A DNA stretch of 48,813 nucleotides from a virus (IMGVR_UViG_2718218305_000005:1-48813); one strand, 5' to 3'; shown: positions 7,251-10,035, counted from the stretch's first letter. A program made the numbers and translations. Notes: generated from the sequence alone by a model not told the origin.

Positions 7251-7430
7251 GTGCTATCCAATATGAATGAAATTGATTCGTTAGTTTTTGAATATTTGCG
7301 ACTTAAGCACCCCAAAGGCTGGGATTGCAGTGAAGCCGATTTTATTTCAGAAGTTCAACGCCTGAGAGCGGAGTTTACCGAGCTTCTTAACCCGCCTCAG
7401 CGTGATATCCCCCCTGGGTTTATTGGTTAA
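7251..7430 (+). CDS. Hypothetical small protein (in the position sieB occupies in Rac)
   Basis: 59-aa ORF with GTG start 5 nt after AAGGAGA; ends PPGFIG; no membrane segments, so not SieB. Confidence 0.3.
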   Translation: MLSNMNEIDSLVFEYLRLKHPKGWDCSEADFISEVQRLRAEFTELLNPPQRDIPPGFIG

Positions 7431-8320: not shown

Positions 8321-8785
8321 CTATTTCTTCATGCGTTTTTGAGCTGCCAGCATATTTTCAAATGCTTCTTTGTAGAGTTCATTCTGACCTTTAAGTCTTT
8401 CGATTAGTTTTGCTTTTTCTGATTCGGGAAGGATATCAAAAAGATCTAGTAAATCAGCTTGTTGCTTGTTAACCATCCGCCAACCTTCGCCTTCGAAACT
8501 TTCGTCATAAGTTCCTGAGGAACGGACGTAATTCATCAGATCAGCTAAATCAGGCCTCAACTCTTCAGGCTTAACTCTTAGTAATACAGCGAATTTTAAT
8601 GCCGCATCAGTATTAAGTGGAGCCTTTCCGTTGAGATAATGGCTAACCGCAGATTGCGCCTCAAAACCCATTAGCTCGGCAGCAAGCTCCTGAGTCAGTT
8701 TGAGCTCTCTTTTTTTTGCATCCCAGATTGCGCGCAGACGTTGCGTAGCTTCCGGCGATGCGATTTCTTCGCGTTTTCTTCTCAT
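8321..8785 (-). CDS. racR: Prophage repressor, RacR-like (HTH, no peptidase domain)
   Basis: 154-aa ORF with XRE-type HTH (TQELAAELMGFEAQSAVSHYLNG) and coiled C-terminus; divergent from a Cro-like gene. Confidence 0.8.
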   Translation of the reverse strand: MRRKREEIASPEATQRLRAIWDAKKRELKLTQELAAELMGFEAQSAVSHYLNGKAPLNTDAALKFAVLLRVKPEELRPDLADLMNYVRSSGTYDESFEGEGWRMVNKQQADLLDLFDILPESEKAKLIERLKGQNELYKEAFENMLAAQKRMKK

Positions 8786-8889
8786 ACCACCATCTTATGA
8801 ATACAGTTCATAATCTCAAACTGATATAGGTATTGATCATTTAAATTAGTATGGTTAATATTTTTGTGAGCATTACTAAGGTGACCATT
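8786..8889. promoter_or_regulatory. Divergent immunity-region promoter/operator
   Basis: AT-rich intergenic region between divergent repressor and Cro-like genes; partial palindrome TATGAATACAGTTCATA. Confidence 0.4.
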
Positions 8890-9165
8890 ATGACATTAGA
8901 TGAATATTTGAAAAAAAATCGTGTACGACAGTCTTGTTTGGCCGCGCTGGCTGGTTGTTCGCAATCAATGATTAGCCTCGTTGCTACTGGACGTAGTCAG
9001 TTAAGCCCTGAAAAGGTATTGCGTATCGCAGAGGCTACGAATTTCGAGGTTACACCTCATGAACTCCGGCCTGATATCTACCCTAATCCGACCGATGGTT
9101 TACCTGTTGGATGTAAGGCTAACACGCAAAATGCACAGGAGTTGATTCATGAAAATCAGGCATGA
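8890..9165 (+). CDS. ydaS: Cro-like HTH regulator YdaS family
   Basis: HTH protein (MTLDEYLKKNRVRQSCLAALAGCSQSMISLVATG) transcribed divergently from the repressor. Confidence 0.8.
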   Translation: MTLDEYLKKNRVRQSCLAALAGCSQSMISLVATGRSQLSPEKVLRIAEATNFEVTPHELRPDIYPNPTDGLPVGCKANTQNAQELIHENQA

Positions 9166-9571
9166 GCACATCGAATCAGTGTTGTTAGCCCTGGCAGCCG
9201 AAAAAGGGCAGGCGTGGGTCGCTAACGCAATTACTGAAGAATATCTGCGCCAGGGGGGCGGCGAATTGCCCCTGGTACCAGGCAAGGACTGGAACAATCA
9301 GCAGAATATCTATCACCGTTGGTTGAAAGGTGAAACGAAAGCGCAAAGGGAAAAAATTCAGAAACTGATCCCTGCGGTTCTGGCAATTATTCCGCGCGAG
9401 CTGCGTCACCGACTCTGCATCTTCGATACCCTGGAACGCCGTGCATTACTGGCGGCGCAGGAAGCGTTGAGTACGGCAATTGATGCGCATGATGATGCAG
9501 TCCAGGCCGTTTACCGGAAAGCACATTTCAGCGGTGGTGGGTCGCCCGGCGATTCTGTCGTAGTGCATTGA
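9149..9571 (+). CDS. ydaT: YdaT-family protein
   Basis: 140-aa ORF MKIRHEHIESVLLALAAEKGQAWVANAITEEYLRQGGGELPLVPG... resembling recalled Rac YdaT. Confidence 0.8.
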   Translation: MKIRHEHIESVLLALAAEKGQAWVANAITEEYLRQGGGELPLVPGKDWNNQQNIYHRWLKGETKAQREKIQKLIPAVLAIIPRELRHRLCIFDTLERRALLAAQEALSTAIDAHDDAVQAVYRKAHFSGGGSPGDSVVVH

Positions 9572-9615
9572 TTGAAATTAATCGTGCCGGATTGTTTTGT
9601 TCGGTATCAGTTAAA

Positions 9616-10035
9616 TGTAACGCTGCGAGCGTTACAAGGTGAAAACAAATGGCTTCAAACTGGATAAAGCTCGAGGTTATTACGCCGGATAAGCCGGAAA
9701 TATTCAGGCTTGCTGAGATTCTGAATATTGATCCAGATGCCGCATTAGGGAAGGTTATTCGCTTCTGGGCATGGGCGGATCAACAAATGATAGACGGTAA
9801 TGCAGATTGTAACGCTCGCGGCGTTACAAAAAGTGCAATAGATCGCATCACTTTTATGGCTGGTTTTGCTGATGCGTTAATTCAGGTTGGATGGCTGGTC
9901 GAAAATGACGGTGGGCTTTCTCTACCTAACTTTGAACGTCATAACGGAAAAAGCTCTAAAAAACGGGCGGTTACAAACGAGCGAGTTACAAAAATACGCG
10001 AACTGAAACGAAAATGTAACGCTGCCAGCGTTACA
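9616..10035. repeat. Three copies of a 21-bp palindrome TGTAACGC-N5-GCGTTACA (putative origin iterons or operator sites)
   Basis: Copies at 9616..9636, 9808..9828 and 10015..10035, plus GTTACA half-sites at 9968..9995; one upstream of and two inside the replication gene. Confidence 0.6.

Follow-up and report, generated by a model that had tools for sequence, protein, structure and literature searches.

In the 48,813-bp viral sequence IMGVR_UViG_2718218305_000005:1-48813 (the window), three copies of the palindrome GTAACGC-N5-GCGTTAC lie just before and inside the gene for a replication initiator. On comparative grounds, these palindromes are probably the cognate sites of the initiator that this gene encodes and, together with a terminal half-site and a polypurine tract, probably make up the origin of the prophage (Table 1). 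A role as origin or as initiator-binding sites had been put forward in the original prediction for this DNA, and all of the comparative evidence supports it: the sites travel with the N-terminal domain of the initiator (N-domain), are under selection at the DNA level, covary with the protein and are lost when the domain is swapped. The likeness to lambda ori that had been pointed out also stands, as the sites fall within the initiator's own coding sequence, in the gene at the position of O, with a loader gene next.

Table 1 Coordinates of the candidate origin elements and of the surrounding genes in the window
Feature	Position	Strand	Description
Palindrome 1 (site 1)	9616-9636	.	TGTAACGCTGCGAGCGTTACA = TGTAACGC-TGCGA-GCGTTACA; ydaT-ydaU intergenic
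Palindrome 2 (site 2)	9808-9828	.	TGTAACGCTCGCGGCGTTACA = TGTAACGC-TCGCG-GCGTTACA; within the N-domain coding sequence
Palindrome 3 (site 3)	10015-10035	.	TGTAACGCTGCCAGCGTTACA = TGTAACGC-TGCCA-GCGTTACA; core of the half-site cluster, inter-domain linker
Degenerate half-site GTAATGC	9797-9803	+	12-bp step 5' of site 2; encodes part of the insert NADC; not in the original prediction
Terminal half-site GCGTTAC	10051-10057	-	Adjoins the polypurine tract; not in the original prediction
All-purine tract AGAGGAAGAGGAAGAGGAAGA	10059-10079	+	21 nt; encodes the EEEEEE linker; not in the original prediction
Initiator gene	9649-10437	+	262 aa; phrog_2509 replication initiation protein, 4e-89
Basic helix codons	9955-10017	+	Residues 103-123, predicted DNA-reading element; holds both GTTACA hexamers
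racR-like repressor	8321-8785	-	
ydaS	8851-9165		
ydaT	9149-9571		Ends 45 bp upstream of site 1
ydaV	10444-11184	+	DnaC-like helicase loader; PF01695 5e-19, NF009043 2e-151, DnaC equivalog 6e-91

A sequence check and a pattern scan confirm each palindrome as a perfect 8-bp inverted repeat around a 5-bp spacer (0 mismatches), positioned relative to the gene as originally described: copy 1 just before the start, copies 2 and 3 within the open reading frame. When the whole window was scanned for the motif, no fourth copy was found even with 3 mismatches, and a similar density elsewhere was not seen. Shuffled windows are expected to contain 0.14 matches, and 0 of 100 shuffles reached three. The octamer GCGTTACA occurs 7 times in the window (1.34 expected), with 6 of these 7 copies being palindrome arms. 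The spacing between palindromes is 192 and 207 bp, and palindrome 1, which adjoins the Shine-Dalgarno sequence AAGGTG, ends 12 nt before the ATG at 9649. Comparison with close relatives (61 haplotypes) places the conserved core at the 7-bp arm GTAACGC; the eighth base of arm 3, T at 10015, is present in only 2 of the 61. The degenerate half-site that precedes site 2 reads GTAACGC in 16 of these haplotypes (T9801C). The four-residue insert NADC that it helps to encode corresponds to a duplicated 12-bp half-site unit, and perfect paired half-sites at +148 and +160 are present in homologous loci L007, L009, L010, L012 and L013.

Extra GTTACA half-sites had also been proposed. The hexamers exist, at 9970-9975 and 9985-9990, but their role as sites was not borne out. 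They are the codons of V108-T109 and V113-T114, and were rejected because they are not enriched in the window (25 found versus 17 expected), because their extended sequences, GCGGTTACA and GCGAGTTACA, differ from GCGTTACA, and because they are polymorphic among the 61 haplotypes (G9970A and the synonymous T9987A). Homologues are without these hexamers, the equivalent place reading RALTxxRVA.

To follow the sites into distant homologues, one genome per species was scanned, which gave 70 loci with the N-domain, 67 of them non-redundant (384 kb). These loci come from Enterobacterales, Pseudomonas, Burkholderiales, Xanthomonadales, Planctomycetota, Verrucomicrobiota (including Akkermansia), Ignavibacteria and Acidobacteriota, with amino-acid identities down to ~35%. 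Palindromes were counted in the 67 loci with at most one mismatch, and positions are relative to the gene start. The equivalent of site 2 (+136 to +160) is found as GTAACGC-N5-GCGTTAC at +100 to +200 in 46 of the 67 loci, and a palindrome equivalent to site 3 (+330 to +395) is found at +300 to +430 in 42. Both intragenic palindromes are present in 39 loci, with only 2 matches elsewhere; the chance expectation is ~0.001 per locus. The median spacing in the family is 212 bp. Half-site 6-mers have a density of 9-12 per kb over the gene's first 400 nt versus ~0.3 per kb in the flanks. A typical site 3 cluster consists of 1-4 forward half-sites in 11-12-bp steps, the palindrome, and then 1-2 reverse half-sites, and some homologues have 4-6 phased half-sites. 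Only 5 of the 67 loci have an equivalent of site 1 just upstream of the start (-32 to -45), which suggests that site 1 is an accessory site of some Enterobacterales members and the least conserved part of the arrangement. Enterobacter phage BUCT554 and a Klebsiella phage have only the N-domain in common with the window (~70% nucleotide identity), and both retain GTAACGC-N5-GCGTTAC at +148 and +357. Among isolated phages, the initiator family includes epsilon15, Xanthomonas CP2, PAN70 and the Stx-related TL-2011b. The gene next downstream encodes a DnaC/IstB-like protein in Akkermansia and Pseudomonas phage PAN70 (the latter also with DnaB), DnaB in Pirellulaceae, Coralloluteibacterium and Ralstonia phage Raharianne, and a lambda-P-like protein in Pseudomonas, Alloalcanivorax and Eoetvoesiella.

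Several features of these sites indicate that selection acts on the site DNA and not on the peptide. Among homologues, site 3 falls in each of the three reading frames (26/9/7); its translation is CNAASVT in the window and NVTRTALQ in BUCT554. Site 2 encodes a near-invariant N55-A56-x-x-V59-T60 with the codons GGT-AAC-GCt...GC-GTT-AC throughout, even at 60-68% GC; its Val codon is GTT where Asn is AAC and GTG exactly where His CAC replaces AAC. The synonymous positions of site 2 are thus fixed by the symmetry of the palindrome. Across the 61 haplotypes, there are 4 rare variants over 42 arm positions, and 11 of 15 spacer positions vary; at site 1, the arms are invariant save one rare change and the spacer is variable. 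Near-invariant arms around hypervariable spacers are as expected for a dimer site in which the spacer goes uncontacted.

The polypurine tract and the terminal half-site beside it are conserved as well. The terminal half-site encodes a conserved A-L-P with the rare Leu codon TTA. Its junction with the tract, GCGTTACC(T)|AGAGAAG, is conserved across loci and becomes GCGTGACC or GCGCAACC where the other half-sites of the locus are GTCAC or GTTGC; the terminal half-site of epsilon15 is GCGGACC. At the equivalent place in most loci, the purine run is 14-33 nt long, compared with a background median of 7-8 nt in the same loci. The usual tract, AGAGAAGAGAAGAGAAGAGA, encodes REEKRRE with every Arg as AGA, even at 60-68% GC, and the Enterobacterales tract encodes EEEEEE; the run of purines is therefore preserved even where the peptide is not. 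The tract is of the (AGAGA)n type in most phyla and of the (AGAGGA)n type in Enterobacterales, and is always on the mRNA-sense strand. It is kept in epsilon15 and Raharianne despite their other half-sites and is therefore a constant part, separate from the specificity part. We consider it a putative strand-opening or helicase-entry element.

The arrays of these two phages were also inspected. In epsilon15 (L156), two copies of GTCCGC and then two of GCGGAC follow in 11-bp steps at ~+330 to +400 of the gp42-like gene, and in Raharianne (L160), two copies of GTAGAC are followed by GTCTAC. Both arrays end at AGAGAAGAGAAGAGAAG, and neither phage record has an origin annotation at its array. N-domain homologues in five Verrucomicrobiaceae metagenome-assembled genomes (L041, L043, L044, L045 and L048) have degenerate sites (PNDLNVT; half-sites at ~-58 and +696) without the purine tract, and in L043 the next gene encodes a glycosyltransferase instead of a helicase or loader. 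These copies may be domesticated or decayed.

The initiator is laid out as an N-domain (residues ~1-100), a basic helix (103-123, with K104, R106, T109, R112 and V113), an acidic linker and a DnaT-C-terminal-like domain (~170-262). An AlphaFold2 model contains a winged-helix-like helical core with high confidence (H61-68, H73-80, hairpin 84-91), followed by the long basic helix and then the disordered acidic linker, and structure searches gave only weak winged-helix matches. The gene had been described as ydaU-like, a label that does not fit its DNA-binding half, which belongs neither to K-12 YdaU/DUF1376 nor to the lambda O family. At E<=0.01, no Pfam family, Phage_rep_O and DUF1376 included, was found for the product, and the sole PHROG labelled O-like, phrog_678, matches residues 77-236 rather than the N-domain. 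The N-terminal 125 residues retrieve 6,790 clusters (50% identity) at E<=1e-3 and 4,300 at E<=1e-10. They define a very large unnamed initiator family, and the N-domain is without a Pfam or NCBIfam model. Only 2 plasmid records with the N-domain were found in a plasmid search, so typed replicons offered no guidance. Of the E. coli genomes listed in RefSeq, nearly all annotate the gene product as a 'hypothetical protein' (e.g., NC_013941.1 1740844-1741632); in phage records its name is either 'primosomal protein I' or else 'DNA replication protein O'.

Variation of the sites is concerted, as variant half-sites change jointly at every site of a locus. The variants are GTCACGC (nine loci), GTTGCGC (L036), GTTACGC (L031) and CTAACGC (L054), as well as GTCCGC in epsilon15 and GTAGAC in Raharianne. 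Residue 113 of the basic helix follows them: V (once A) is found in ~51 loci of the GTAACG type, the 8 genomic GTCACG loci all have K or Q, as does a Vibrio phage, and both T-type loci have M. Epsilon15 and Raharianne, with still other half-sites, likewise have K or Q. The independence of these changes was checked by identifying nearest relatives over the rest of the domain, with the site-encoding loop and the helix excluded. The nearest relatives of L035, L051 and the Vibrio phage are GTAAC-type proteins, and five loci form one clade. The half-site has thus switched in at least 6 independent lineages, from A to C in at least 4 and to the T type in 2, each time with a change of residue 113. 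This covariation, a correlation, is the strongest computational evidence available and suggests that the basic helix reads the half-site.

A natural domain swap points in the same direction. Phage 683R6 (vB_EcoS-683R6, L002) shares ydaT and ydaV with the window as well as the C-terminal half of the initiator, but its N-domain is of the DUF1376 type. Identity between its 285-aa K-12-type protein and the window initiator begins only at ~residue 150, and the nucleotide match covers 54% of the query. This phage is without GTAACGC palindromes and has TGTTCAA repeats in the corresponding middle part of the gene. Sites and N-domain are therefore inherited as one module, the sites being lost when the N-domain is swapped. 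The repeats of 683R6 read (A/C)AGrTGTTCAA and lie at 2037, 2070, 2103 and 2115 (33-bp steps), and a further copy, at 2133, is inverted (L002 2037-2143); they are likely candidate iterons of the Rac origin oriJ.

In the mechanism that we infer, which extends to physical binding, its stoichiometry and dimer geometry, origin firing, the opening site and the roles of site 1 and of the DnaT-like domain, the initiator would dimerise and place basic helix 103-123 into successive major grooves of GTAACGC-N5-GCGTTAC, with T109 and V113 reading the third and fourth base of the half-site. Dimers at site 3, at the flanking half-sites and at site 2 (~207 bp off) would build a nucleoprotein complex, and the neighbouring 21-nt purine/pyrimidine tract would be opened. 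The DnaT-like C-terminal domain and the DnaC-like YdaV would then bring in host DnaB. Site 1, located at the ribosome-binding site, would be accessory, either as a loop anchor or as a roadblock giving autoregulation.

The C-terminal part of this proposal draws on E. coli DnaT. The last ~90 residues of the initiator align with the single-stranded DNA-binding domain of DnaT, including the tail PDSxIPPGFRG. In a phmmer search against the PDB, residues 170-262 matched 2ru8_A (DnaT, 1e-4) and 9zbt_D (3.5e-4); the DnaT model NF002770 matches the shared IPPGFRG tail only, below its cut-off, and homologues carry PF17948. In contrast to what is proposed for the window initiator, DnaT is without a sequence-specific origin-binding domain and works with PriA and PriB at forks, D-loops or R-loops, not at a dedicated origin. 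Iteron plasmid initiators (RepA, pi and RepE) resemble the window protein in the predicted winged-helix-like N-domain and in phased repeats of about one helical turn, and there, too, a single protein may have two tasks, autoregulation at an inverted repeat close to its start and initiation at the origin.

Lambdoid origins within the initiator gene, including O/ori of Stx phages, have been described (PMC7466680). The arrangement in the window would be a functional counterpart of ori-lambda within O and of the TGTTCAA repeats within K-12-type ydaU. As proposed, it shares with lambda ori/O an origin in the middle of the initiator gene, dyad-symmetric sites for a dimeric N-terminal domain (here proposed), origin DNA that encodes the flexible linker between the DNA-binding and loader-recruiting domains, a loader gene in next position, the exchange of N-domain and sites as a module, and a purine-rich strand beside the sites. 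It differs from lambda in that the initiator is not in the Phage_rep_O family and has an unnamed DNA-binding domain, the C-terminal domain is DnaT-like and the loader DnaC-like. The DNA elements differ as well: the sites are GTAACGC-N5-GCGTTAC versus 19-bp lambda iterons; the core is one full site plus half-sites, with two full sites 192-207 bp off, versus 4-6 tandem iterons; one site lies within the coding sequence of the DNA-binding domain itself; and where lambda has an AT-rich 40-mer there is a run of purines only, (AGAGA)n or (AGAGGA)n.

Some observations weigh against an origin at these sites. The known Rac origin, oriJ, is that of K-12 Rac, whose YdaU has a different N-domain. Beside the purine tract there is only one full palindrome and one half-site, the other palindromes being ~200 bp apart, whereas lambda has four iterons in a tight array. 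AT-richness in the region is mild (40-43% GC over 9930-10050, with a strong A-over-T skew), and no DnaA boxes were found near the sites. Moreover, the covariation of residue 113 is a correlation; residue 55 covaries too, but trivially, since site 2 encodes it. Finally, sites serving as operators only would give much of the same comparative signal. An IHF consensus was likewise looked for near the sites, and none was found. Four GATC sequences occur within 112 bp (10042-10153), at and after site 3 and the purine tract, which is the highest density per 150 bp in the window; a Dam/SeqA link to origin control is possible.

A more specific version of the origin, for which our confidence is low, is an R-loop-assisted, primosome-style origin built into the phage initiator gene from E. 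coli to Planctomycetota, in which the polypurine tract replaces the AT-rich unwinding element. Transcription would leave a stable purine-RNA/pyrimidine-DNA hybrid, or the tract as a mirror repeat would form a triplex; the single-stranded DNA-binding C-terminal domain of the adjoining initiator (DnaT-like in the window) would capture the displaced strand, and DnaB would then be loaded through the loader. H-DNA (triplex) was rejected as a universal explanation: (AGAGA)n is a perfect mirror repeat and enterobacterial (AGAGGA)n is not, so a triplex cannot explain all tracts.

The alternative that the palindromes are operators only, at which the initiator or another repressor autoregulates ydaU-ydaV by roadblocks while the true origin is elsewhere, is unlikely. 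It would account for the placement of site 1 just before the start codon of an operon without a separate predicted promoter, palindromic dimer sites are typical of operators, the sites lie far apart (192 and 207 bp), and the comparative signals prove a protein-DNA partnership, not origin firing. However, it is the upstream site that is least conserved, and the conserved sites lie 150 and 350 nt inside the gene. An operator would also have no need of the conserved polypurine tract at which the phased site 3 cluster ends. Repeats occupy the equivalent place in the K-12-type YdaU gene, and in lambda O the iterons lie at the equivalent mid-gene place. Near the module, no further cluster of repeats was seen.

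A much weaker candidate is a role as hairpins in the ydaU transcript, acting in processing, stability, translation control or pausing. Each palindrome folds to a 9-10-bp stem (-11 to -16 kcal/mol, z -2.1 to -3.6), symmetric arm changes would keep the pairing, and site 1 adjoins the ribosome-binding site; hairpin stability is, however, uninformative for any palindrome. The 95 distinct sites contain 81 arm pairs that are not Watson-Crick; on the mRNA strand, only 4 of these are G.U (17% expected) and 16 are A.C. The primary sequence of the stem is kept across phyla without compensatory drift, and the half-site covaries with an amino acid of a DNA-replication protein. Many loci contain direct half-site arrays in 11-12-bp steps, and no Rfam 15 match at E<=1 was found on either strand of 9300-10500. 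An RNA role is very unlikely because G.U pairs are depleted, direct arrays are unable to pair and Rfam gives no match. The palindromes were also considered as intrinsic terminators and rejected: a scan flags only site 3, on the minus strand (10014-10036, the stem plus TTTCGTTTCA), and GC-rich homologues are without the T-run. The flag arises from the adjacent lysine-codon A-run and is probably incidental.

It is similarly improbable that the sites belong to another protein, either a host factor or a prophage regulator (YdaT, YdaS or RacR), although "a regulator" had been named as a possible binder. The case for it is one of proximity, with ydaT ending shortly before site 1 and a weak YdaT-box-like sequence at 9568-9585. 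YdaT has a different motif, TTGATT-N6-AATCAA (PMC9986795, PMC11879457), which the palindromes do not match, and YdaT was rejected as their binder. The palindromes follow the N-domain into Planctomycetota, Verrucomicrobiota and Xanthomonas/Pseudomonas phages with different neighbouring regulators, vanish when only the N-domain is exchanged, and vary in step with residue 113. Two YdaT-box-like sequences are present near the sites. One, TTGATTCATGAAAATCAG at 9142-9159, overlaps the ydaT start codon, as described for Rac; the other, the weaker TTGATTGAAATTAATCGT, lies between ydaT and ydaU, 30 bp before palindrome 1, and could be a second site for looping by tetrameric YdaT.

Chance, or a by-product of the repeated peptide CNAxxVT (in the window, sites 2 and 3 both translate to C-N-A-x-x-V-T), can be set aside, as site 1 is non-coding, site 3 occurs in three frames, synonymous positions follow the symmetry and the number expected by chance is only 0.14.

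If the palindromes and tract are the origin, they define the origin and recognition rule of an unnamed initiator family with at least 4,300 clusters (50% identity, E<=1e-10) in many phyla, including epsilon15-like, Xanthomonas, Pseudomonas and Stx-related phages and the Rac/Sp10-type prophages of pathogenic E. coli. Origins of this family would be predictable from sequence, with palindromes at ~+150 and ~+350 followed by the purine tract. Residue 113 provides a candidate one-residue specificity code (V113-GTAAC, K/Q-GTCAC, M-GTTnC) that would be useful for incompatibility/exclusion studies and for orthogonal replicons. The codes also overlap, in that the origin DNA would dictate NAxxVT, ALP, the REEKRRE/EEEEEE linker with its rare AGA codons, and loop insertions that arise by half-site duplication. 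With a strict polypurine tract where an AT-rich element would be usual, the question arises of how such origins open. In a literature search limited to open-access papers, no description of these sites or of this origin type was found.

The window is a Rac-family prophage at ttcA with intR, xisR, ralR, recET, kil and racR, and it resembles Sp10 of O157 Sakai. Sp10, which occupies the same attachment site in O157 and has a DnaC-type loader, can be excised and transferred (PMC2669165). For the Rac prophage, an active origin, oriJ, is reported (PMC3945230; Potrykus 2000 as cited in PMC11014345). The window and K-12 Rac belong to the same prophage family and share the integration site, the operon racR / ydaS-ydaT-ydaU-ydaV, the C-terminal half of the initiator and YdaV. 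They differ in that K-12-type YdaU has a DUF1376 N-domain and (A/C)AGrTGTTCAA repeats and is without GTAACGC palindromes; therefore, results with oriJ plasmids are not directly transferable to the window sites. Downstream of ydaV, a DUF1627 protein with helix-turn-helix-like segments is encoded at 11210-11980, followed at 11981-12388 by a DUF977/Ren-like exclusion protein (phrog_142, 5e-42); a Ren-like gene behind the replication genes parallels the lambda order O-P-ren. Finally, a short open reading frame at 7262-7430 (plus strand), which overlaps kil in antisense and has no PHROG match, ends in NPPQRDIPPGFIG, like the IPPGFRG tail. This resemblance could be due to chance, or the product could be a small competitor peptide.

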